A model generated the notes under the pieces. The model did no database searches and was not told the DNA's origin. It worked only from the letters and a program-made list of their open reading frames with translations. The position numbers were made by a program, and so were the translations under genes. DNA of 40,445 bases, from the UHGV virus genome UHGV-1363021; one strand, given 5' to 3'. Positions 21,574 through 34,726 of this stretch are shown one piece after another (position 1 is the first letter of the stretch; each line of letters opens with the position of its first letter). The DNA is from a virus.

Positions 21574-23436
21574 ATGTTATTAACTTTAGACTTTCCTATT
21601 CAAATAGGACACACATTTAGAACCAAGATGATAAATAATTTTAGAACAATACTTAATTATTATAATGAATTAGATCATCAGCATCGCGCACACACAGAAA
21701 CTAAGCTTCATGCACATCAAGCCATGCAGGTTGATTATAGAAATACAAACGTTTCTGCATTTTTAGATTATCTTAACGGTAATATTAATGGGCTTGTTTT
21801 AGGAGCAAATGGAGACGGTATAGCTGAAACAAAACAAGCCAGAGTATCAATAGATGGTACCGTACATCCCTTGTTGCAAGAAAGACTGCTTCATGACTTT
21901 TTAGGAATTAACAGAAAATTAGATAAAGAAATACATTCTAATGGTGCAGTTGACTTTATTTGGAATCCTCCATATATATCAGGAAATAGATTAGGAAAAA
22001 ATGGGACACCAAATAATTGGGAACCAGAAGCCCATATTGAGGCATTTTTAAACCCTTTAGTTGATAATCAATACGTTACAAAAGAAGTTATAGGAGAAGA
22101 TACATCAGGAAAATATAATGTGTACAAATTTACGTTTGAACCACAAAATTACAATAAAACGCTACTTATTACTTCATGTATACACGGTAATGAAACTACT
22201 GGATTTTTTGATATGTGCCATATACTCAACCTATTGGTCAATCAGTGGGAAAAGTATCCTCAACTAACTTACTTAAGAAAAAATGTACGTTTAATTTATG
22301 TTCCTATGGTTAACCCGTGGGGATTCGCAAATCAAAAAAGAGAGAATGTGAACAATGTAGATTTAAACAGAAATTTTGATTATAACTGGAAGGCAGGTAA
22401 AGGGACAGATCCTGATAAATCTAACTTCAAAGGTAAAAGTCCTTTTTCTGAAAAAGAATCACAAAATATGCGTAGCTTAGTTCAACGTATAGATAATTTA
22501 ACTGCTCACTTAGATTTGCATGATATTATTTCAGTAAATAATGATTACTGCTTATTTTATCCGCGTTGGGCCAATCAAAAAAACAATAATATGACTCATC
22601 TCATTAACAATTTAAAAAGTAACGGAGACTTCGTTGTTTGGGGTTCCAGTACATTATCATCTTTTAGTAATTGGGTAGGAATCCGAAATAAAACAACGTC
22701 ATATCTTTCAGAAATAAATGAAAAACGTGTCGGTGAAAAGAAAAGTCCCGAAGAAATGAGACGCTCAGTACGCTGGGTTGGTAATGTAATTTTCAGAATG
22801 GCACAATTTGAATCTTATCAAAATGGTCAAACATCATTAGATCCTTTCATTAAAGTGATGGTATATGATGATAGATTTAACAATAAAACGTCTGAAGTCA
22901 TTACCCTACGTGCAGAAAGGAATGAATGGCAACGTATAATGATGAGTCAGCAGCGTTTCAAAGTTTTAGCGAATGGATTTGTAGAGCTCTATGGATATGT
23001 GACTATAAACGTTGATAGAGATGTCACAGTCGGGATTAGTCCTAATATTGTTCAGAATTATCATCCATTCTTTGGGTTTAATAAAAGTAGAAAACGTAAT
23101 TTATTTTCGATTGAACATAGACTCAACAAAGGAAATATAACTTTCCCTATTTACGCTGCTGCTGGAGTTCAAATGTCGACGATTACTGAACCAGGTACAA
23201 AACGTACTGATACAGTAATGCCGGTACTAGATGTTAAGAAAAAAGGTGCTGGTATTGTAACAATCAAACAAATTAAATTATTTGCGAAGTTCACTCCTAC
23301 GCATTCTGCTAATTCCATTCAGATATTAAAATCTGGAGAATACGGTAATCTTAAAGAAGATACGTTCACACAAATTTACCCTAATACTATATACGATGAT
23401 GATTTAAAAAATGTTATAAATGGGGAGGAAAAATAA
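21574..23436 (+). CDS. tail fiber / receptor-binding-like protein with predicted zinc carboxypeptidase-like (AstE-AspA/M14-type HGNE) domain
   Basis: AAAGGAGG RBS; motif LLITSCIHGNETTGF matches the HGNE zinc-ligand signature of the M14/AstE-AspA superfamily; 620 aa in the baseplate region. Confidence 0.55.
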   Translation: MLLTLDFPIQIGHTFRTKMINNFRTILNYYNELDHQHRAHTETKLHAHQAMQVDYRNTNVSAFLDYLNGNINGLVLGANGDGIAETKQARVSIDGTVHPLLQERLLHDFLGINRKLDKEIHSNGAVDFIWNPPYISGNRLGKNGTPNNWEPEAHIEAFLNPLVDNQYVTKEVIGEDTSGKYNVYKFTFEPQNYNKTLLITSCIHGNETTGFFDMCHILNLLVNQWEKYPQLTYLRKNVRLIYVPMVNPWGFANQKRENVNNVDLNRNFDYNWKAGKGTDPDKSNFKGKSPFSEKESQNMRSLVQRIDNLTAHLDLHDIISVNNDYCLFYPRWANQKNNNMTHLINNLKSNGDFVVWGSSTLSSFSNWVGIRNKTTSYLSEINEKRVGEKKSPEEMRRSVRWVGNVIFRMAQFESYQNGQTSLDPFIKVMVYDDRFNNKTSEVITLRAERNEWQRIMMSQQRFKVLANGFVELYGYVTINVDRDVTVGISPNIVQNYHPFFGFNKSRKRNLFSIEHRLNKGNITFPIYAAAGVQMSTITEPGTKRTDTVMPVLDVKKKGAGIVTIKQIKLFAKFTPTHSANSIQILKSGEYGNLKEDTFTQIYPNTIYDDDLKNVINGEEK

Positions 23437-24650
23437 TGGAATTAAAAAAGATTGGTAAAATTGAAGTTAAAAATGAACCTTACTTAAAACCGATATCTGA
23501 TGAAGGTATCGGTTTTTATAACTTAGATGATAAAACTGCAGTTTTAAGGTTTTATGTGACTAAAAACAAAAAGCCTTTATTAATTAGTGAAGAAAACACT
23601 GAAACGTACATATATCTTGAATCCTCTAACGGTTCTAATCAAATAGTTGAATATGTACGTTTTATTGACCCTTTAAATGGTGTTATTGAAGTAACTATAC
23701 CTATTGAATTCTTACAAGCTTCAACGAATACAATTGTTATAGGTCAAATATATATTTCGATTAACCATCGAAATCAGGTAGATAGCGATAAATCATCAAC
23801 TGCAGTTTTAACTGAATTTGAATTCGAAGTGGGTGACGCAATAATAAATAAAATTAATGGTGCAACTAAAATTAAATATATCCGTATGTTTGATGAATTA
23901 AAAAGACAAATTAATGCACGAGCCACTGAAATACAAGAACAATTAGATAATTTAGAAGATTGCGTTGTTAAAGTGAAAGATGCAAGTGATGAAGGAATTA
24001 CAAAGATTCAGATTGAAACAAAAAAAGGATTGAACAAACTTAATCAACAACATAGTAAAAGTGTAAAAGACGTCGAGGAATCTCTTAACGCGGCTAAAAA
24101 TACAATTCAAAATCTTTATGAAGAATATGACAACGAAATTGACACAAAAGGAAGTCAATATTTGAAAGATTTAAGAATCGAAGTTAGGAATATTGAAAAT
24201 ATATTAAGTCAAGAGGGATACGTCACAATTGATGAACATCGTAAAATCATTACTGAAATACAAGAAAAGTTACCTGAATCTTCAGATTGGATTGAATATG
24301 ATTTGATTAATGGAGCTATAAAAAATAGGCATTATAAAGCTGAAGGACAAAATGGTTTTAATTGCGCTTATAAAATCATTCAACATCAAGACTACAAGGA
24401 AGTGATTTTAAGAATTAACGCTGACAACTTTAAAAGTGGAACTGTTATAGCGAAGTTACCGAGTGAATTAATTACAAGTACGCAAACTGCGTTCCTAAGA
24501 GCGGTGCCTGTTAAAGCTGGTGGTGCTCAATTAACTATTGAACCTAATGGAGATGTTAAAGTTTATATTTCTCAGAGCGATCAGTGGTCAGTAAGTCGTG
24601 AAGCTTATATTTACGGAGAAATTAGAATGATAGATAAAGGAGGTGAATAA
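23436..24650 (+). CDS. tail fiber/baseplate protein with central coiled coil
   Basis: GGGGAGG RBS; 404 aa; coiled-coil middle segment. Confidence 0.45.
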   Translation: MELKKIGKIEVKNEPYLKPISDEGIGFYNLDDKTAVLRFYVTKNKKPLLISEENTETYIYLESSNGSNQIVEYVRFIDPLNGVIEVTIPIEFLQASTNTIVIGQIYISINHRNQVDSDKSSTAVLTEFEFEVGDAIINKINGATKIKYIRMFDELKRQINARATEIQEQLDNLEDCVVKVKDASDEGITKIQIETKKGLNKLNQQHSKSVKDVEESLNAAKNTIQNLYEEYDNEIDTKGSQYLKDLRIEVRNIENILSQEGYVTIDEHRKIITEIQEKLPESSDWIEYDLINGAIKNRHYKAEGQNGFNCAYKIIQHQDYKEVILRINADNFKSGTVIAKLPSELITSTQTAFLRAVPVKAGGAQLTIEPNGDVKVYISQSDQWSVSREAYIYGEIRMIDKGGE

Positions 24651-24654
24651 AGTG

Positions 24655-25278
24655 ATGGATACTTATAAATCTATGACTGAACTTGTGAGAAATGAAAAAG
24701 ATTGGATGATTGAGACGCAAGATAGAAATAGTAAATCACTTATAACTGCTATACACGGAGGTGGTATAGAGTGCGGCACTTCTGAATTAGCGTTATTGGT
24801 TGCAGAATTATCGAATTCAAACTATTTCACTTTTAAAGGTTTAAAACCGAAAAACAATAGAACTCTACACGTCACTTCAACAAATTATGATAACCCCAAT
24901 TTACTATATTGGAATCAATTTATGAATGTAACGATAGCCATACATGGTTATTCAAGCAGTGAAGCGAATAGTTATATTGGTGGACTAGATGAAAGACTTA
25001 TATCTCTTATTACTCACAATTTAAAAGTTTCAGGTTTTAATGTGGAAGCTGCTTCTGACAGAATTGCGGGCAGAGAAATTAATAATATAACTAATAAAAA
25101 TGCCTATGGCATGGGTGTACAGATTGAAATATCAACTCAACAAAGAAAAGAATTTTTTAGTCGAAACGATTTTAGTCAAAAGAATAGAGAAAATACACAT
25201 AATTGGACAGAAGATATGTATTACTATGCTAATGCTATTTGTGCTGCACTTAATGATAGAAAGTGGGTAGAAACATGA
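24655..25278 (+). CDS. poly-gamma-glutamate hydrolase PghP-like (DUF867) zinc hydrolase
   Basis: Motifs AIHGGGIECGTSE, HVTSTNYDNP, IAIHGY, GVQIEIS, QRKEFF closely recall PghP of Bacillus phage phiNIT1 (zinc ligands H-E-H); GGAGGTGA RBS 7 nt upstream. Confidence 0.65.
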   Translation: MDTYKSMTELVRNEKDWMIETQDRNSKSLITAIHGGGIECGTSELALLVAELSNSNYFTFKGLKPKNNRTLHVTSTNYDNPNLLYWNQFMNVTIAIHGYSSSEANSYIGGLDERLISLITHNLKVSGFNVEAASDRIAGREINNITNKNAYGMGVQIEISTQQRKEFFSRNDFSQKNRENTHNWTEDMYYYANAICAALNDRKWVET

Positions 25279-27123: not shown

Positions 27124-28561
27124 ACGTTTACGAGATTATAAAAACGGTGTAGTAGATAGTCCATACAGAGTTAAACGTTGGACGAGTTATGACGCTTCCT
27201 TTGGTGCTATGGAACCAGGTTGCATTGATAAAGACCGTGCTTATCACGCACAGTGTATGGACTTGGCGATAGATTATGTAATGTGGTTAACTGATAATCA
27301 AACAGAGATGTGGGGCGATGCTAAAAGCTCTATAATAAACAAATTCCCTAAAGGGTGGAAGATTGTAGAAAACAAACCGTCAACGATACCCAAAAAAGGT
27401 TGGATAGCTGTATATACAGCTGGAACCTATTCACGTTATGGGCATATAGGTATAGTATATGATGGTGGTAATACGAACTCCTTCCAAATACTTGAACAAA
27501 ATTGGAATGGCTGGGCTAATAAAAAACCTAGCTTACGATGGGATAATTATTATGGTTTAACACACTTTATAGTTCCACCTATAGCGAAAGAAATAGAAGA
27601 ACCTAAAAAAGATGCAAAATCAGCTCCTAAACAGTCAGTTAAGGAAAATAGTAGCATCAAAGTCAACACTAATCATATAAAAAGTTGGACTATGACTAAG
27701 AGAGGTCGTAAACCTAAAGGTGTAGTCATTCATAACGATGCCGGCACAATGAATTCAAAACAATACTACAACAATCTAGTAAACGCTGATTACAATAGAT
27801 TAGCAAGAGGCATAGCTCACGCATACGCTGATAGAAACGGTATTTGGGAATCTATATCAGAAGATAGAATTGCTTGGCATGTATCAGATGGTGTTCAACC
27901 AGGTTCAGGTAATTTTGAATTCTACGGAATCGAAGTTAACCAATCGATGTATGCCGGAGATAAAGATTTTCTTAAAAATGAACAAGTTGCGCTTAAATTC
28001 GCAGCGCATAAACTTATAAAGTGGGGGTTACCAGCTAACAGAAATACTGTTCGTTTACACAATGAATTTAGTTATACAGCTTGTCCTCATCGTTCTGCTA
28101 AATTACATGCTGGCATTGATCCAACAAAACAAGCATGGACTAAGGCAACACAGCTTGAGTTAAAAGATTACTTTATTAAGCAAATTAGGGCATATATGAA
28201 AGGTAGTACACCTAAAGTTACTACAGTTAAAAACAAACCTGGCAGTGCATCCACTCCAGCTAATAGACGAGATATGAACGGTTGGAAAATCAATAAGTAT
28301 GGAACTTATTATAAATCAGAAATAGCTCACTTTACGCCAAACACTCCTATTAAAACTCATTATGTTGGACCGTTTAGAAGTTGTCCTGTGAGCGGTGTAT
28401 TACAGCCAGGTCAAACAATAAAATATGACACTGTATGTAAACAAGACGGTCACGTTTGGGTGAGTTATACAGCTTATAATGGTAATGACGTTTGGTTAGC
28501 TGTGAGAACATGGAATAAAACAAATGATAGTTTAGGTAAATTGTGGGGTACAATCAATTAA
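27098..28561 (+). CDS. endolysin: CHAP + amidase_2 (N-acetylmuramoyl-L-alanine amidase) + SH3b
   Basis: CHAP Cys/His (AYHAQCMDL...RYGHIGIV); amidase_2/PGRP segment (VIHNDAGT...AWHVSDG); C-terminal SH3_5-like; GGAGGAGGAG RBS. Confidence 0.9.
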   Translation: MKTQSQINKRLRDYKNGVVDSPYRVKRWTSYDASFGAMEPGCIDKDRAYHAQCMDLAIDYVMWLTDNQTEMWGDAKSSIINKFPKGWKIVENKPSTIPKKGWIAVYTAGTYSRYGHIGIVYDGGNTNSFQILEQNWNGWANKKPSLRWDNYYGLTHFIVPPIAKEIEEPKKDAKSAPKQSVKENSSIKVNTNHIKSWTMTKRGRKPKGVVIHNDAGTMNSKQYYNNLVNADYNRLARGIAHAYADRNGIWESISEDRIAWHVSDGVQPGSGNFEFYGIEVNQSMYAGDKDFLKNEQVALKFAAHKLIKWGLPANRNTVRLHNEFSYTACPHRSAKLHAGIDPTKQAWTKATQLELKDYFIKQIRAYMKGSTPKVTTVKNKPGSASTPANRRDMNGWKINKYGTYYKSEIAHFTPNTPIKTHYVGPFRSCPVSGVLQPGQTIKYDTVCKQDGHVWVSYTAYNGNDVWLAVRTWNKTNDSLGKLWGTIN

Positions 28562-28563
28562 TC

Positions 28564-28578
28564 TGTTATAATAAAATT
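28564..28578 (+). promoter_or_regulatory. promoter-like extended -10 motif copy A (TGTTATAATAAAATT)
   Basis: TGnTATAAT directly after the endolysin stop; one of three near-identical 15-mers. Confidence 0.4.
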
Positions 28579-28709
28579 ACCACGTCATTATACAAGGGTA
28601 GTCGCTATGGCTACCTCTCATAAATTACAATTAATTATGTCTATAATATGAAGATATTAGATTGATATTAAAAAAACATAGTTTAACACTACATTGGTTA
28701 CACGGTCTG

Positions 28710-28724
28710 TGCTATAATTAAATT
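28710..28724 (+). promoter_or_regulatory. promoter-like extended -10 motif copy B (TGCTATAATTAAATT)
   Basis: TGnTATAAT; about 45 nt upstream of the terminator at 28769-28797. Confidence 0.45.
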
Positions 28725-28768
28725 ACATACAATTTAATTTTTTATACTCCTTTATAACTTTTTTGCTA

Positions 28769-28797
28769 CCACGCTCTTTGTGAGCGTGGTTATTTTT
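28769..28797 (+). terminator. intrinsic terminator (CCACGCTC-loop-GAGCGTGG plus T-run)
   Basis: Perfect 8-bp stem, 5-nt loop, TTATTTTT tail. Confidence 0.7.
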
Positions 28798-28826
28798 GCG
28801 AACGCCAACAATTTCTGTCGTAACTA

Positions 28827-28841
28827 TGTTATAATTAAATT
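28827..28841 (+). promoter_or_regulatory. promoter-like extended -10 motif copy C (TGTTATAATTAAATT)
   Basis: TGnTATAAT; about 20 nt upstream of the hairpin terminator at 28860-28889. Confidence 0.45.
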
Positions 28842-28859
28842 GCAAGTCATTTCACAGAA

Positions 28860-28889
28860 GGGTAGTCTTAACGGCTATCCTTTTTTTTA
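28860..28889 (+). terminator. intrinsic terminator (GGGTAG-loop-CTATCC plus T8)
   Basis: 6-bp stem (one G-U), 9-nt loop, TTTTTTTT. Confidence 0.6.
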
Positions 28890-29559
28890 TGTAAAAGTTT
28901 TCATAAAACCTCATGCTAGACATAATAAAAACACTCCTAGAACATCCAGTATTGTCAGTACTGGTTATTCAAGAAGTGTTATGCAACTAAGAAAATGGCC
29001 TCTCGGTAACTAAACCGTAAGGCCAAATAACAAAGAAAGGATTATACCTGGAGCTTCAGAACTTCTCCATATCATATGATAAAATATTTTTGGGATATTT
29101 TCAATTATGAAAGAACAAATATATTTGTATTATTAATATTAAGCGTACCATTACTACTTTTATAGGAAGAGAGATCCATTTTTATTATTTAGATAAAAAG
29201 AATAGACGTAGAAAACTTGAGCGAGTATAAATCAAAAATACTTGAATTGATTAGTAGTATTATAACAGGATATCAGATTTTCAAAGAGCAAGCATAAAAC
29301 AATTTGTCATCTCACAACTACGACTTGAAAATATAGAAGCTGATAACATACTGCAAAAAACTATATGAATATGCTACAAAGTATTATAATAAGGATAGAA
29401 TACAATTATAATGAAGACTGGTGTGTTGTTTATGGGGAGCTAGTGAAAAGTACTTGAATGGTATGAATGACTAAAAAGTACAAAAGTCATAATGTTTATG
29501 TTGAAGGCAAATGGAACACTATTTACATAAAATCATATCAAAGAAGTGAAAAGTGAATA

Positions 29560-29739
29560 ATGAGAAAAGAAATAGAGAAGTTATTAAAGAGTGATCTAAC
29601 AAGCAATTGCATAGCAACAGAAACAGGTGTAGAACAAAGTACTATTCATCGACTAAGATTTGGAGAACGCACACTTGATAATTTAGGGTTAAAACAATGT
29701 GAAAAGTTATATGATTTTGCAATTAAGATAAAACTATAA
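29560..29739 (+). CDS. small HTH-like protein (59 aa) in the cargo region, preceded by a 29-aa ORF (29467-29556)
   Basis: Helix-turn-helix-like IATETGVEQSTIHRL; strong terminator 29897-29926 downstream; below ORF-track cutoff. Confidence 0.3.
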   Translation: MRKEIEKLLKSDLTSNCIATETGVEQSTIHRLRFGERTLDNLGLKQCEKLYDFAIKIKL

Positions 29740-29896
29740 CTATTTCGACTTCGAGGTGGCCATTATATTAAAATAACCCTTGCCCTAATTTAATATTAAT
29801 ACTATATTCTAAACCACTTTCTTTATATCTTTAAATGTGCTAATTTATAAGTATACAATTTAACTTTCCTCTCAAATTTTCATGTATTTATTTAAT

Positions 29897-29926
29897 AACC
29901 ACGTTCTTAACAGAACGTGGTTTTTT
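29897..29926 (+). terminator. intrinsic terminator (AACCACGTTC-loop-GAACGTGGTT plus T6)
   Basis: Perfect 10-bp stem, 6-nt loop, TTTTTT. Confidence 0.75.
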
Positions 29927-30138
29927 GATACCATAATTGATACCAATTTAATTTAAAACTAAAAATATTGTAAAATTTTCAGATACCAAAACCGCTTAAA
30001 ATCAACGTTTTTAGTATCTGAAAAATACAGAAAATAGATATTTTACACGAAATGGAAGGTGCAATTGGATAGCCTTCAAAGGCGTGGTTGAGCCATTCTC
30101 TATCACTGAAAACAGCTATTGATACCATTTTGATACCA
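29925..30138. other. attP-like region: four direct TTGATACCA arm-type repeats flanking an 11-bp inverted repeat, abutting the integrase stop
   Basis: TTGATACCA at 29925-33, 29937-45, 30119-27, 30130-38; perfect inverted repeat TTTTCAGATAC (29976-86) / GTATCTGAAAA (30014-24). Confidence 0.5.
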
Positions 30139-30139
30139 T

Positions 30140-31189
30140 TTACTCGTCAAATATTGCTATTGCATCGTGTTTTTTCTGAGTATATAAATGGCTGTAAGTG
30201 CCCATCGTTTCAGTGATTTGAGCATGTCTCATAAGCGATTGTAAAACAAAAATATCTACACCGTTATTTGCAAGGTAAGATGCGTAAGAATGTCTTAACG
30301 TGTGTATGTTATAATTAGGGAAAGCTTGTTGGAATTTCTTCTGAGCATGCTGGTAGTGCTTAGGAGCCATTCCACCAAAAATAAAGTAACTACGTTCATC
30401 AAAGTATTTGTTTGCTGATTTCTCACGTTGATAGCGTTGAGTTAACATTTCATTGATGAACTTAGGTAAGGGAACAATATCTTCTGAGCTATCTGTTTTA
30501 GGTCGTGGATATATTGTTCTATTAGAGATGTCCATTGTTTTACTAATGGATATCTCTTTTTTATATTTATTAAAATCAGTCCAAACTAGCGCCATTGCTT
30601 CTCCGACCCTTAATCCTGTATAAAACATCAAAGTAAACAATTCTCTATAGTCTTGTTCTTTAATATCTTTTACACGTTCTTCAAATTCCTCTCTTAGCAT
30701 ATACTTCGGTCTAGGTTTTACACGTGGAATAGGTTTGATGGATATAGTTGGATCTATACGCAACCCGAAATACTTTTTAGCATAGTTAACAACTACTTTG
30801 AAACCAGACCATATGGTACGTGCTGTATTAGTTGAAGGTACAGTTTCCATTAAGTATTTACGGAACTCTTGGCACTGATTTTGAGTTATTTTATTCATAT
30901 TGATGTGTCCGAATTTATCTTTTATATGTTTATTATATTCGTTTCGTTTACGCTTTTTTGTTTTAGGTCGAAGATCGCTATTTTCCAGGTAATGATTGAA
31001 AACATAGTCAAAAGTTCTAGAGTCACTATAACCTTCGTTAACTTCATTTAAAAATCTTGCTTCTTCACTCTTCGCTTCACGCTTTGTGGCAAATCCTCGC
31101 TTCAATTTACGTTTGTTATTTCCGTAAACATCTTTGTATCGTATAGAGAAATACCACTTTTTTGTACTTTCATCTTTATATACTGGCAT
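30140..31189 (-). CDS. int: tyrosine integrase
   Basis: C-terminal catalytic region HTLRHSYASYL...LMRHAQITET..YSHLY (R-H-R-Y); N-terminal SAM-like domain; 349 aa. Confidence 0.9.
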   Translation of the reverse strand: MPVYKDESTKKWYFSIRYKDVYGNNKRKLKRGFATKREAKSEEARFLNEVNEGYSDSRTFDYVFNHYLENSDLRPKTKKRKRNEYNKHIKDKFGHINMNKITQNQCQEFRKYLMETVPSTNTARTIWSGFKVVVNYAKKYFGLRIDPTISIKPIPRVKPRPKYMLREEFEERVKDIKEQDYRELFTLMFYTGLRVGEAMALVWTDFNKYKKEISISKTMDISNRTIYPRPKTDSSEDIVPLPKFINEMLTQRYQREKSANKYFDERSYFIFGGMAPKHYQHAQKKFQQAFPNYNIHTLRHSYASYLANNGVDIFVLQSLMRHAQITETMGTYSHLYTQKKHDAIAIFDE

Positions 31190-31207
31190 CTTTACTCATT
31201 CCTCCTT

Positions 31208-31244
31208 AAAAAAGTAAAAAATAATAAGGGTAGACGGGCTACCC
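31208..31244 (-). terminator. intrinsic terminator on minus strand (GGGTAG-loop-CTACCC plus T-run) downstream of the CapA-like gene
   Basis: Perfect 6-bp stem 31228-31244; minus-strand T-rich tail (plus-strand AAAAAGTAAAAAATAATAA). Confidence 0.55.
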
Positions 31245-31403
31245 GATAATATGCTCTCTAAATAATAGTCAATGTTACTTATAATTTAATTAAGATAACT
31301 CGAGAAGGATTAACGCTGGTCCCGAAAAGGAGTAAGTGCATAAGCACTGAGCATTACTATGTGCCTGGGGTTATCTTTTTTATTTCATAAACTATCAACA
31401 AAT

Positions 31404-32561
31404 TTAGTTAGATTTTAAAAATTCTTTATCAATAATTTCATTAGTAATTCTTTCCATATGTTCTTTAGTCATATCCTTGTTTTCACCACTTTGCATACCA
31501 TGTTCATTTGCTATTTTATCGTTATATTTGTCTAGTGGGTAAACAGTAAAATCATATCTAGAATCTTTATTGCCTGGTATTCTTTCTCTATAGAAATTTA
31601 CTAGGGATTTCCAATGAACATTTTTAATTACAATTTTTTGCCCTTTTTTTGTTATATCAAAATTTATGCTACCACAAAGATTATTACTTTCATTACCAGT
31701 ATTTTGACCATTTAAAAAATTACCTAATGAGTAAACTACAAGTGTTTTGTGATTTTTTATGCCTTTTACCCATTTTACCGGTTGAATTACATGGGGATGC
31801 ATACCTATTACGGCATCGACATTTGAATTTGCGAATACTTTAGCATATCTTTCTTGCTTTTTATTTGGATAATGATGACTCTCTTGTCCCCAATGAGTTG
31901 AAACGATAACAGCATCACTATTTTTTTTAGCGTATTTGACGTCTCGCTTTATTTTATTTTCATTTAAATAATTAATTTGATATTTATTTTCTGGTTTAAG
32001 TCCATTAGTACCAAATGTATAATTAAGTATTGCTATCTTTATTCCATTTTTATTTATAATTTGAAGTTTCTCATTATCTTTTTTAGATTTGTATACACCA
32101 GTGAACATAACTCCTTTTTCTTTATACTTTTCCCATAGATTAACTCTATGATTAACGCCATGTGTACCTTTGTCGAGAGCATGATTATTTGATCCGTTAA
32201 TTAAATTAAATCCTGATTCAACCAAATATTTCGACAAATCGCTAGGAGTATTAAACCTTTTAAAACCTGAATAAGGTATATCATCCCCTCCCATTGGGGA
32301 CTCTTGGTTGATGTAAGCAATATCAAATTTCTTTATATAAGGTTTAATGTTTTTATACATTGGTGAAAAATCATAGTCATTATGACGAGTTTTTGCATCG
32401 CTATATACAACTGGATGAATTAAATTATCTCCAACTGCAACAAAAGAAACTTTTTCATGATTAAAGTGGGTGTCAATTTCAGCAAATATTAAAGTTATAA
32501 CTGCTAATAGGCTAAAAAAAATTATAGCTATTATTTTTTTCAATTTACATACCTTCTTCAT
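31404..32561 (-). CDS. CapA/PGA_cap-family membrane-anchored metallophosphatase-like protein, lysogeny-region moron
   Basis: N-terminal TM anchor; metallophosphatase-like motifs (VAVGDNLIHP, INGSNNHALDKG, GMHPHV) and overall CapA/PgsA (PF09587-type) architecture; own terminator. Confidence 0.65.
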   Translation of the reverse strand: MKKVCKLKKIIAIIFFSLLAVITLIFAEIDTHFNHEKVSFVAVGDNLIHPVVYSDAKTRHNDYDFSPMYKNIKPYIKKFDIAYINQESPMGGDDIPYSGFKRFNTPSDLSKYLVESGFNLINGSNNHALDKGTHGVNHRVNLWEKYKEKGVMFTGVYKSKKDNEKLQIINKNGIKIAILNYTFGTNGLKPENKYQINYLNENKIKRDVKYAKKNSDAVIVSTHWGQESHHYPNKKQERYAKVFANSNVDAVIGMHPHVIQPVKWVKGIKNHKTLVVYSLGNFLNGQNTGNESNNLCGSINFDITKKGQKIVIKNVHWKSLVNFYRERIPGNKDSRYDFTVYPLDKYNDKIANEHGMQSGENKDMTKEHMERITNEIIDKEFLKSN

Positions 32562-32568
32562 AATTTAT

Positions 32569-32736
32569 TCATCTATTTCGCTTGCAATTCTCTCTAACGT
32601 TTCTCTAACCTCTTTTAAAGTATACATATCTGAAAATGTGTAACAGAAAGTTTTTCCGTTATCAGTTTCGGCTGTAACAGTGTATAAATCCTCAATATGA
32701 TCATAGCTAATATGATAGTTTAAAATCTTCATTCAT
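32569..32736 (-). CDS. hypothetical small protein (55 aa) between the CapA-like gene and cI
   Basis: Minus-strand ORF with GGGGA SD; below ORF-track cutoff. Confidence 0.35.
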
Positions 32737-32776
32737 AGTCCCCTTTTTGCATGTAGTTTATTAAATTGACCTTTCA

Positions 32777-33403
32777 TTAAAATAACTTTTGACTTGCTAC
32801 AACTCTACCAATTATTTTAACTTCATCATTTTTTCCATATACCTGTGGGTAGTGATTTGTATTGTTTGATTCTGGAATTAATATAACTTGGTCACCATTG
32901 TATCTAATACGTTTAACAGTCGCGTTATAACCATTAATCATAACAACGCCTAACTGACCATTCTCTACTATAGAATCTTTCTCTACCACAACTATATCGC
33001 CGTCTTGAAATATTTTATCCATGCTATCGCCAGACACTTTTAAACCAAATTCTTCTTTATCAGAATTAAGTTTGTTAGTAGCAAAGTATATGTAATCGAT
33101 TAAATTTTCTTCACTATAGATAGGTAAGCCAGCAGATATTTTTGAAACGACTGGAATCTTTTTGACTGGTAGGGTTTCTAATACTTGTTTTTCTTTGTCT
33201 TCTACCAAATCAGCTTTAGTTACATTAAAGTAATCAGCAAGTAATTCTATTTTGTCAATACGAGGATATGTTTTTGCATTTATCCAATCTGACAAAGTTG
33301 TATATTTTACTTTTAAATCATTTGAAAGTTTCTTTCTATCGATATTGTTTTCTTTCATAAGACGAGAAATATTTTTAGCCATTACTTGTTTATTACCTAG
33401 CAT
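32777..33403 (-). CDS. cI: cI-like repressor (XRE HTH + S24 LexA-like peptidase domain)
   Basis: N-terminal HTH; C-terminal S24 motifs GDSM (Ser) and VKRI (Lys); divergent from cro. Confidence 0.85.
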   Translation of the reverse strand: MLGNKQVMAKNISRLMKENNIDRKKLSNDLKVKYTTLSDWINAKTYPRIDKIELLADYFNVTKADLVEDKEKQVLETLPVKKIPVVSKISAGLPIYSEENLIDYIYFATNKLNSDKEEFGLKVSGDSMDKIFQDGDIVVVEKDSIVENGQLGVVMINGYNATVKRIRYNGDQVILIPESNNTNHYPQVYGKNDEVKIIGRVVASQKLF

Positions 33404-33438
33404 TTATTTTCAATCCCTTCATCTAATAACTTAAATCC

Positions 33439-33467
33439 ATTATACGATTATTCCGTAAATATTACAA
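33439..33467 (-). promoter_or_regulatory. putative cI promoter (-35 TTGTAA, 17-nt spacer, -10 TATAAT on minus strand)
   Basis: Plus-strand ATTATA 33439-44 and TTACAA 33462-67 give a near-consensus sigma-A promoter reading leftward. Confidence 0.55.
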
Positions 33468-33524
33468 GTGTAAAATAAAAAATACGGTTTAAGTGTTGAC
33501 ATTACGTTTTAACCGTAATATACT
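33452..33524. promoter_or_regulatory. putative operator sites with CCGTAA/TTACGG core between divergent promoters
   Basis: TCCGTAAATATTA (33452-64), ATACGGTTTA (33482-91, inverted) and AACCGTAATATA (33511-22) overlap the promoter elements. Confidence 0.45.
33496..33524 (+). promoter_or_regulatory. putative cro promoter (-35 TTGACA, 17-nt spacer, -10 TATACT)
   Basis: Consensus -35 and good -10 with 17-nt spacing, 30 nt upstream of the cro RBS. Confidence 0.6.
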
Positions 33525-33555
33525 TAATTCAGTTCTTACAGCAGGAGGTGACAAA

Positions 33556-33783
33556 ATGGTTGAAACTTATGTAAGAAAAGAACCCTATACACTAAAAATG
33601 TTGCGTGCTAAATATGATTTAACTCAAGCACAGGCAGGTAAGAAAGTAGGTGTTTCTGCTGATGTTTGGCACAATTGGGAAAAAGCTAAAACATTTCCTA
33701 ATATTCCACAATTACAAAAGATTGAAGAAGAATTTAACGTCACTTACAATGACATTATTTTTTTAACCAACAATAACGGTTAA
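33556..33783 (+). CDS. cro: Cro-like XRE-family HTH repressor
   Basis: GGAGGTG RBS 5 nt before ATG; HTH LTQAQAGKKVGVSADVWHNWE; divergent from cI. Confidence 0.75.
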   Translation: MVETYVRKEPYTLKMLRAKYDLTQAQAGKKVGVSADVWHNWEKAKTFPNIPQLQKIEEEFNVTYNDIIFLTNNNG

Positions 33784-33808
33784 ACCGTAATAAAGGAGAT
33801 GGAAATAA

Positions 33809-34726
33809 TTGTTTGAAATAGAACACATGAATGAAGTGTTTGATTATTCTCTTATAGATGGTGAAACGGCAGAATTTTTGAAAGAACGAGAATACACAAT
33901 TAACGGAATCGCTGAAGATGCTCGTATCAAAATAGGTAAGGAATTAAAAAAAGCTAAAAACAAATTAGCTAATCATCACGGCGGAGTTTTTCAAAAGTGG
34001 GTTCAAAGTGGTGGCATGTCAATAGATGATGCTTATTACTATATCAATTTAAATGAGTTGTCGAGAAATCTCGATGACATAAAAAAAGACAATTTCCTAA
34101 ACGCTCCTAAATCACTACAAAAAGAAGTAATGAAAAAGAACACTCCAGATGATTTAAAACAAAAAGTTTTAGATGGAGACATCACAACACACAAAGAGTA
34201 CAAGCAACTTCAAAAAGATAAGGAAGAACTCAAGCAACAAAACGCTCAACTTCAATCTCAAGTAAAACAAGCAAAACGTTCAGAATCAATTGCACGTAAG
34301 AAACTCGAAGATGAACAGAATAGAGAACCTGAAGTGATTGAGCGAGAAGTTATCAAAGAGGTTGTACCTGATGAAATTCAACAACAACTCGAACAATTCA
34401 AGCAAAAATTCGAACGTGAAAGTGACAATGCTAATGAACTTAGAAATGAATTGCAGCGCTATAGAAACAGTTTCGGCGACCCTAACCAAGCATACGAAGA
34501 AAAAGAATTAACTAGGCTAGAACGCGAATCGAGTATCAACGCACACAAGATATCAATTAGCATACAAAATTTCATCAAAGAGAACTCAGTTGAAACGTAC
34601 AGACTAGATACAGTCATTAAAGCGAATACGAAGTCGAAAGAAAGACTACAAGAAAATGTAGCGTTATTAAAAGAATTTACAACCAATTTAGAAGCAATGT
34701 TAAACGGAAGAATCGTCGTAAATTAG
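33809..34726 (+). CDS. hypothetical coiled-coil early protein (possible DUF3102-like)
   Basis: TTG start after AAGGAGATGG; long Q/E/K-rich coiled coil. Confidence 0.45.
   Translation: MFEIEHMNEVFDYSLIDGETAEFLKEREYTINGIAEDARIKIGKELKKAKNKLANHHGGVFQKWVQSGGMSIDDAYYYINLNELSRNLDDIKKDNFLNAPKSLQKEVMKKNTPDDLKQKVLDGDITTHKEYKQLQKDKEELKQQNAQLQSQVKQAKRSESIARKKLEDEQNREPEVIEREVIKEVVPDEIQQQLEQFKQKFERESDNANELRNELQRYRNSFGDPNQAYEEKELTRLERESSINAHKISISIQNFIKENSVETYRLDTVIKANTKSKERLQENVALLKEFTTNLEAMLNGRIVVN

Follow-up and report, generated by a model that had tools for sequence, protein, structure and literature searches.

The temperate phage genome UHGV-1363021, analyzed here as a single window of 40,445 nucleotides, carries in its lysogeny region a minus-strand gene of 385 codons that belongs to the PGA_cap family and is known in related phages as capA. 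On the basis of sequence comparison, we firmly predict that this gene encodes a membrane-anchored, outward-facing metalloenzyme and, with equal firmness, that the enzyme is not orthologous to the CapA/PgsA subunit of poly-gamma-glutamate (PGA) synthetase. Homology has led to the mislabeling of the gene product as a capsule-synthesis protein; its relatives form a separate clade of stand-alone enzymes. A role in altering the surface of the lysogen is more probable than one in building capsule. The phage itself is a temperate Staphylococcus siphovirus of the StB20-like/S-CoN_Ph18-24 group, whose hosts are Staphylococcus epidermidis and related coagulase-negative staphylococci.

The phage gene encodes a membrane-anchored enzyme of the PGA_cap family

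The gene and the parts of its 385-amino-acid (aa) product lie as follows in the window.

31404..32561, minus strand: CapA-family (PF09587 PGA_cap) gene of the stand-alone clade, 385 aa, phrog_23677
32475..32537, minus strand: codons of residues 9 to 29, the sole N-terminal hydrophobic helix (hydropathy and AlphaFold2 model)
31704..32444, minus strand: codons of residues 40 to 286, the PGA_cap/calcineurin-like catalytic domain (Pfam and alignments)
31407..31703, minus strand: codons of residues 287 to 385, a C-terminal beta-sheet and helices (alignments and AlphaFold2 model)

An earlier note on this DNA had described a PGA_cap gene of this length and strand, with an N-terminal membrane anchor and metallophosphatase-like motifs, and all of these features were recovered. 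A hidden Markov model search returned a full-length PF09587 match, in which residues 40 to 286 cover positions 2 to 255 of the 255-position profile (E value of 2.5e-62; 211 bits for a cutoff of 27). The protein contains a single hydrophobic segment at residues 9 to 29 (19-residue Kyte-Doolittle mean of 2.7, the next best being 0.6), which is preceded by MKKVCKLKK and falls within a helix spanning residues 3 to 31 in the AlphaFold2 model. As no lipobox cysteine is present, this helix is predicted to be a type II signal anchor or an uncleaved signal peptide, and the lysine-rich stretch ahead of it should stay in the cytoplasm. Several homologs have a lipoprotein lipobox at the position of the signal anchor, and the catalytic domain of the phage enzyme is therefore predicted to face outward. 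Within that domain, D45, E87, N126-H127-x-x-D130, H223-W-G-x-E227, and H255-x-H257 are invariant in alignments of 14 and 26 sequences that include Bacillus anthracis CapA. The C-terminal region is modeled as strands (residues 295 to 342) followed by helices (residues 348 to 376).

Two start codons can be considered for the gene. The ATG at 32561 stands 3 nucleotides past the stop codon of an upstream open reading frame (ORF) of 55 aa, while the RefSeq form of the protein (379 aa) starts from a TTG at 32543, which has a better Shine-Dalgarno sequence (AGAAGG) 8 nucleotides upstream. The phage copies, and with them the two chromosomal proteins nearest to them (P0007 and P0011), have strongly basic ectodomains, with an isoelectric point (pI) of 9.3 to 9.6 and a net charge of +12 to +22. 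The pI is 5.4 to 8.8 in other staphylococcal chromosomal copies and approximately 4 to 4.5 outside the staphylococci. A cationic ectodomain such as that predicted for the phage copies fits the binding of a polyanion.

The enzyme is distinct from the CapA/PgsA subunit of PGA synthetase

B. anthracis CapA (pXO2) and Bacillus subtilis PgsA were used as canonical proxies for the CapA protein of the host capBCAD genes. Both share with the phage enzyme the PGA_cap domain, a catalytic domain held outside by an N-terminal anchor, and the invariant D/E/NH..D/H/HxH residues. The identity with CapA/PgsA of PGA synthesis that the earlier note had implied did not survive comparison, since the enzyme is 23% identical to each of the two proteins, whereas these are 50% identical to each other and identities across the canonical set, including three other Bacillaceae homologs, are 47 to 56%. 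A neighbor-joining tree separated the canonical CapA/PgsA clade from the stand-alone clade, which contains the phage protein. A lysine-rich cytoplasmic segment of about 25 residues (KLxFxEKLL..KKK) precedes the membrane helix in all five canonical sequences examined, but sequence comparison found it neither in the phage protein nor anywhere in the stand-alone clade. The C-terminal domains also differ: the last 100 residues are conserved inside the stand-alone clade and could not be aligned with canonical CapA/PgsA.

The gene neighborhoods are equally distinct. The pXO2 plasmid has the canonical capBCADE order, but when 80 genomes, one per species, were searched by tblastn, none of the 80 loci had CapB, CapC, CapD, or CapE within 10 kb of the stand-alone gene, and the same queries gave no match in the window. 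Scanning the enzyme against NCBIfam returned no CapA/PgsA model, its sole match being a subthreshold one to the epimerase MslH. When B. anthracis CapA was used as the query, the best 120 matches were all from Bacillaceae, and a tblastn search of plasmids with CapB yielded no staphylococcal record. Our rejection of orthology follows from the low identity, the missing lysine-rich N terminus, the separate clade, and the lack of capB/C/D/E neighbors.

The same evidence leaves little likelihood that the enzyme acts as a functional CapA/PgsA subunit, joining the host CapB-CapC synthetase, in place of host CapA or in addition to it, to change the amount or the anchoring of the capsule. Such a role would suit the common Pfam family and the shared topology, as well as a host that makes the polymer: Kocianova et al. 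are said to have reported in 2005 that S. epidermidis produces PGA through capBCAD. It sits poorly with a protein that differs from the canonical subunits at both ends, that matches no NCBIfam CapA model, and whose clade is never found beside capB or capC.

The predicted fold resembles that of a peptide epimerase

To consider what chemistry the enzyme may perform, its AlphaFold2 model (predicted local distance difference test score [pLDDT] of 89.5) was compared with the PDB by Foldseek. The top matches were the MslH structures 8itg and 8gq9 (E value of 5e-15; TM score of 0.52 to 0.56), and MslH was also the only PDB match at the sequence level (profile-to-MslH E value of 2.8e-10). Residues N126/H127/D130, H223, and H257 of the enzyme align with N87/H88/D91, H259, and H295 of MslH, and motif order would make D45 the counterpart of MslH D11. 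MslH works on the C-terminal residue of its peptide substrate as a Ca(II)-dependent C-alpha epimerase; it binds one Ca(II) ion and is no phosphatase (PMC10406935). Its authors have proposed that CapA is a PGA epimerase (PMC8179263), and B. subtilis pgsBC without pgsA gives PGA with a D/L ratio of 5/95, compared to 75/25 with pgsA (PMC6029982).

The resemblance to MslH, an epimerase of the C-terminal Trp of a lasso peptide, covers the fold, the His/Asp dyad (H127/D130), H223, and H257. The two proteins are otherwise far apart, with 13% identity, and MslH is a cytoplasmic, octameric protein of 440 aa encoded in a gene cluster for a ribosomally synthesized and posttranslationally modified peptide (RiPP). 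The enzyme scored 37.8 bits with the NCBIfam MslH equivalog model NF038314, for a cutoff of 700, and its context is a phage lysogeny module rather than a lasso-peptide cluster.

A true metallophosphoesterase acting on wall teichoic or lipoteichoic acid, which would trim or mask the phage receptor and so cause superinfection exclusion, is an improbable identity for the enzyme. Wall teichoic acid is the usual receptor of staphylococcal siphoviruses, and prophage-encoded modifiers of teichoic acid such as TarP are known. The calcineurin-like fold would suit this activity: phosphoesterases (5'-nucleotidases, YmdB, and cyclic-nucleotide phosphodiesterases) are the next PDB matches after MslH. The cationic ectodomain is in keeping with it as well, as is a TagF-type glycerophosphotransferase gene found 2 kb from the stand-alone gene in ten loci of the Staphylococcus xylosus group, although that neighbor is distant and restricted to one lineage. 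Of the canonical metallophosphoesterase motifs of the two-metal site (DxH, GDxxDR, GNH[DE], H, GH, and GHxH), III to VI are recognizable as NNH, H223, and H255-x-H257, but GDNLIH and NQE stand in for I and II, which makes phosphoesterase chemistry less likely. The only characterized member of the family binds one Ca(II) and has no phosphatase activity (PMC10406935).

Chromosomal relatives neighbor peptidases of the cell envelope

We firmly place the stand-alone clade, by sequence, on the chromosomes of most coagulase-negative staphylococci, of Carnobacteriaceae, and of Erysipelotrichaceae. The phage copies nest within its staphylococcal branch, together with a 74%-identical copy from a Staphylococcus saprophyticus prophage, and descent of the phage gene from that branch is a firm reading of the tree. 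The chromosomal gene occupies a syntenic locus in S. epidermidis, S. hominis, S. lugdunensis, and S. haemolyticus. The chromosomal CapA-family proteins of S. epidermidis (WP_001831857.1), S. lugdunensis, and S. haemolyticus are 48 to 58% identical to the phage enzyme and, like it, are extracytoplasmic and unlinked to capB/C, with equal length and the same domain layout. Their locus (arc operon, esterase ... thiamine pyrophosphate-dependent decarboxylase, MarR) differs from the lysogeny module that harbors the phage copy. In addition, the S. epidermidis chromosomal copy has a lipobox and the three chromosomal copies have a pI of 5.4 to 8.4, whereas the phage copy is signal anchored and strongly basic.

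Another chromosomal copy (P0007, 58% identical to the phage enzyme) lies at an Rce1-like/lplA/comK locus (L092/L093:7001-8134), which is also where the gene-carrying S. saprophyticus prophage (L006) is integrated; from its position, P0007 may be a prophage remnant. A 59%-identical protein labeled Helicobacter pylori (P0006) is suspected to be a contamination.

Two kinds of envelope peptidase recur beside the stand-alone gene. In S. lugdunensis, a PF05908 hydrolase, the family of the PGA hydrolase PghP, is encoded 175 bp downstream (L002:6001-8157); it comprises 280 aa and has its own N-terminal membrane anchor, so that the two genes encode a pair of surface-anchored enzymes. Three further staphylococci have a PF05908 hydrolase gene no more than 4 kb away, and the staphylococcal members of the clade point to PGA as the substrate. 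In 24 of the 80 genomes, belonging to Erysipelotrichaceae and Clostridia, the gene directly upstream (approximately 100 bp) encodes a VanY (PF02557) D-Ala-D-Ala carboxypeptidase lipoprotein. These 24 pairs come from gut loci among L046 to L090 (e.g., L086:856-1863), and we know of no previous description of a VanY/PGA_cap two-gene unit. Since VanY and PghP are both zinc peptidases acting on unusual envelope peptides, the clade resembles a peptide-modifying partner of such enzymes.

The VanY neighbors also raise another substrate, which we regard as unlikely. The enzyme may act on the stem peptides of peptidoglycan (L-Ala, gamma-D-iGln, L-Lys, D-Ala, D-Ala), for instance by epimerizing or trimming a residue that is terminal or gamma-linked; such an activity would change the lysogen's wall, with altered phage adsorption, sensitivity to endolysin or virion hydrolases, or antibiotic tolerance. 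Besides VanY, this proposal draws on the epimerization of a C-terminal peptide residue by MslH (PMC10406935) and on the wide distribution of the clade in Firmicutes without a nearby PGA synthetase. Nevertheless, the VanY neighbors belong to Erysipelotrichaceae and Clostridia, not to staphylococci, in which the recurrent enzyme neighbor is a PGA hydrolase, and an activity of this kind has no biochemical precedent.

The gene is a conserved cargo of a mosaic lysogeny region

On the minus strand, the order of features is the CI/LexA-type repressor gene, the 55-aa ORF, the enzyme gene, a hairpin with a U-run, and the tyrosine integrase gene.

33439..33474, minus strand: two overlapping sigma-70-like promoters 5' of the repressor gene, TTTACA-16-AATAAT and TTGTAA-17-TATAAT, predicted from consensus matches
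32777..33403, minus strand: CI/LexA-type repressor (helix-turn-helix and Peptidase_S24; profile matches)
32565..32732, minus strand: 55-aa acidic orphan ORF, phrog_17674, with its own Shine-Dalgarno sequence AAAAGGGGA
31218..31244, minus strand: terminator-like hairpin and U-run 3' of the enzyme gene, GGGUAG...CUACCC stem
30140..31189, minus strand: tyrosine integrase of the Arm-DNA-bind_4 type (profile matches), adjoining sufB in integrated copies

On this strand, the 55-aa ORF follows the repressor gene after 44 bp and the enzyme gene follows the ORF after 3 bp, and a search of the minus strand from 33403 to 31404 revealed no terminator-like site. The repressor gene is therefore probably the first of a leftward lysogeny transcript that continues through both of these genes, as far as gene arrangement can tell. 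The terminator that the earlier note had assigned to the enzyme gene at 31208-31244 corresponds to an actual hairpin with a U-run, at 31244-31218 on the minus strand, but a weak one (-9.1 kcal/mol; z = -1.5). The hairpin is also where StB20-like and the S-CoN phages begin to resemble the window at the DNA level (approximately 31201-31227), and it thus forms a mosaic boundary to the integrase module. No RNA family was found by an Rfam scan of positions 28500 to 34000.

The gene is not a new find, as it is already annotated in databases. It appears as capA or CapA family protein in StB20-like and in a circular 41.6-kb S. epidermidis element, and as hypothetical in S-CoN_Ph18-24 and in the paper describing the S-CoN phages. 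StB20-like gp54, a "CapA family protein" (YP_009200577.1, NC_028821), and the S. epidermidis cluster P0001 represent the same gene, with 96 to 97% aa identity; gp54 is flanked, like the window copy, by the repressor gene and the 55-aa ORF. Downstream, the window copy joins the sufB-type integrase right after the hairpin, whereas StB20-like and the S-CoN phages have extra cargo and then a different integrase. (Elsewhere in StB20-like, the early-region gene gp49 [L001:5134-5397] bears the RefSeq label "CRISPR-associated endonuclease Cas2.") At an identity of at least 95%, the gene was present in 9 of 50,697 phage records, in keeping with its earlier description as a noncore accessory gene, and its flanking cargo is variable; it is known from one phage lineage and one S. 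saprophyticus prophage. A 97%-identical protein cluster occurs in 341 blocks of the assembly index, the label CapA family protein is found in hundreds of S. epidermidis prophage assemblies, and integrated copies show the order repressor, 55-aa ORF, PGA_cap gene, integrase, and sufB.

While the enzyme gene remains 96 to 98% identical, its surroundings swap: the cI alleles are 64 to 98% identical, there are two unrelated integrases, and the cargo varies. In every phage context examined, the gene is the first or second past the immunity operon and on the same strand, and this position after the repressor operon is kept across at least three immunity-module types, including an ImmR/ImmA pair. In the latter case, an IMG/VR contig (L108:7162-9158), the enzyme gene directly follows the ImmR/ImmA-type pair without the 55-aa ORF; downstream are a small lipoprotein gene and then two genes apparently like the "sporulation protein" and DUF3644 genes of StB20-like. 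The ratio of nonsynonymous to synonymous substitution rates (dN/dS) among the phage copies is 0.11 to 0.17, and the enzyme gene is therefore taken to be functional and under purifying selection. Its GC content is 28%, that of the phage being 33%, and a composition check for a signature of horizontal transfer revealed no anomaly in the gene.

These data bear on the notion of a passenger, i.e., a captured host gene with no role in the lysogen that is kept through linkage to the immunity region. The nearest relatives are indeed chromosomal staphylococcal genes, and the narrow occurrence in phages would be in line with a capture of no consequence. Against it stand the low dN/dS with intact catalytic residues, the high identity retained while the cI and integrase modules are exchanged, and the constant position after repressors of different types, and we consider a passenger the least probable of the explanations weighed here. 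The arrangement is better described as that of an accessory gene (moron) in the lysogeny region, which we infer to be expressed by the lysogen. Comparable cargo, transcribed with or near a repressor, includes rexAB and sieB of lambda and tarP of Staphylococcus aureus prophages, which alter the susceptibility of the cell to other phages. None of these is related to the phage enzyme in sequence or fold, and an exclusion phenotype is hypothesized for the latter.

Some matches call for comment. Two 41,200-bp contigs (L012 and L013), from assemblies labeled Nocardioides sp. NPDC127503 and Micromonospora sp. NPDC050417, contain this Staphylococcus phage, with identities of 98% for CapA, 100% and 99.7% for the integrase, and 99.5% for PghP. 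They are almost certainly contaminations of actinomycete assemblies by a phage of skin staphylococci. In one S. epidermidis chromosome (L096:8355-15140), the integrase gene is followed by endolysin, holin, and PghP genes and not by sufB, which suggests either prophages in tandem or a gene order permuted as it is in the window.

Within the window, a 59-aa ORF (29560-29739) between the endolysin and integrase genes has weak matches to PHROG transcription-regulator families and precedes a strong terminator-like hairpin (29897-29922); in an integrated prophage, this ORF would be at the end opposite the integrase. A defense function, which the earlier note had entertained for the enzyme, found no backing in PADLOC-DB, whose defense models matched neither the enzyme nor the 55-aa and 59-aa ORFs.

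The 55-aa orphan ORF is independent of the enzyme

The adjacent 55-aa ORF is real, although its coordinates had previously been placed 4 nucleotides off (32569-32736 instead of 32565-32732). Its predicted product is acidic (pI of 4.5) and soluble, without a hydrophobic segment, and is modeled by AlphaFold2 with a pLDDT of 90.5 as beta-beta-beta-alpha, in agreement with the earlier statement that it lacks a helix-turn-helix. Structure searches of the PDB and BFVD with this model returned no significant neighbor, and no match was found in Pfam, NCBIfam, or functionally annotated PHROG families. As the model contains neither a helix-turn-helix nor a winged helix, a role as excisionase is unlikely. 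More broadly, the reported lack of xis near int was borne out by the ORFs scanned: no excisionase-annotated PHROG family matched the 55-aa ORF, the 59-aa ORF, or ten further ORFs of the window that are small or early. A CapE/PgsE-like identity, considered for its similar size, was ruled out by the acidic, soluble character of the product and the missing hydrophobic segment.

Relatives with at least 87% identity were found only in S. epidermidis phages by a word-indexed search, and an exhaustive search added three more small relatives with 46 to 61% identity. One of these is encoded by an S. carnosus prophage that lacks the enzyme gene; its ORF has ImmA on one side and the integrase on the other. 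The 55-aa ORF is usually upstream of the enzyme gene, but each occurs without the other: in phiIPLA5, two other genes come after the ORF and the enzyme gene is lacking, while the S. saprophyticus prophage and L108 have the enzyme gene without the ORF. It is thus no partner of the enzyme, and the model and its distribution suggest an independent orphan that is unlikely to be a typical excisionase.

A possible link between the enzyme and surface PGA

The phage carries a second gene of interest at the end of its tail module.

24643..25278, plus strand: PghP-type PGA hydrolase (PF05908), end of tail module (Pfam)

The PghP-like hydrolase that the earlier note had seen in the virion module is a full-length PF05908 match (E value of 4.9e-58) and is 38% identical to PghP of phiNIT1. 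Its residues H38, E43, and H101 are invariant in the alignment with phiNIT1 PghP and correspond to PghP H40, E45, and H103, which we take to be zinc ligands. PghP homologs were found in 75 Staphylococcus phage records. A 620-aa protein of the tail module (21574-23436) contains a Peptidase_M14 zinc carboxypeptidase domain (E value of 4e-22), and the tail region thus has two zinc-carboxypeptidase-type enzymes, M14 and PghP-like. In S. epidermidis, PGA guards against salt, antimicrobial peptides, and phagocytosis. It is a DL polymer that is loosely, not covalently, attached, and PghL and PghP are specific for stretches of L-Glu and inactive on D-PGA (PMC6506827). Of the two genes that the earlier note had tied to PGA, the hydrolase is well founded, but for the enzyme the link is indirect, being drawn from the four staphylococcal genomes with a hydrolase gene within 4 kb and from the hydrolase of the phage itself.

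The reading that we favor, tentatively and short of an even chance, is that of an envelope peptide epimerase or processing enzyme that would be expressed by the lysogen, with host DL-PGA as its likeliest substrate. The repressor promoter would drive one transcript spanning the repressor, 55-aa, and enzyme genes, so that the lysogen would produce the enzyme, which would act on the lysogen's own envelope. There, it would function as a metal-dependent peptide epimerase or processing enzyme on a polymer with gamma-linked or D-amino acids; this step, the weakest of the chain, leans on the analogy with MslH and PgsA, the only characterized relatives. Since PghP-type hydrolases cut only L-Glu stretches, a scrambled or raised D content would make the PGA of the lysogen a poorer substrate for the PGA hydrolases encoded by many phages that infect coagulase-negative staphylococci, including the one encoded by this phage. 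The outcome would be superinfection exclusion at the level of the capsule or lysogenic conversion.

Several observations weigh against this interpretation. Epimerization is reversible, so that its net effect on a heterochiral polymer is uncertain and might even aid degradation. The commonest conserved neighbor of the clade is VanY, which points to peptidoglycan peptides rather than PGA, and the clade is present in taxa not known to make PGA and, across the 80 loci, never beside a PGA synthetase. S-CoN_Ph25, one of the 12 phage records with a PghP of at least 80% identity, is absent from the list of enzyme matches, and PghP-carrying phages hence do not need the enzyme gene. S. epidermidis has its own chromosomal paralog with 49% identity, which makes the contribution of the phage copy unclear. 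Expression in the lysogen is deduced from the architecture of the locus, in which the hairpin is weak, and the high pI of the enzyme may merely mirror the AT-rich, lysine-rich composition of its gene. Finally, a literature search found no paper discussing the phage CapA-family gene and no experiment on any member of the stand-alone clade.

In its most specific form, which we regard as distinctly unlikely, the proposal holds that the enzyme is a surface PGA epimerase rewriting the D/L pattern so that the L-specific, PghP-type depolymerases of competing phages of coagulase-negative staphylococci, and of the prophage's own kin, fail to clear the PGA layer, and that the clade consists of extracytoplasmic peptide epimerases working with PghP and VanY. 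If true, polymer stereochemistry would be the basis of superinfection exclusion, and a single phage genome would encode both a hydrolase and an antihydrolase.

The main value of this analysis lies in the reclassification of the gene and in a testable hypothesis, inferred in all its mechanistic steps, that ties the enzyme to the stereochemistry of PGA and to the PGA hydrolases of phages. Large and extracytoplasmic, the stand-alone PGA_cap clade is recurrently paired with PghP or VanY peptidases, and this pairing offers a tractable way into the chemistry of the CapA family, PgsA included. A common prophage gene that edits the PGA layer or the wall peptides would, if confirmed, represent a new route of lysogenic conversion and of phage competition on human skin, and it would bear on therapeutic plans for PghP-type enzymes.

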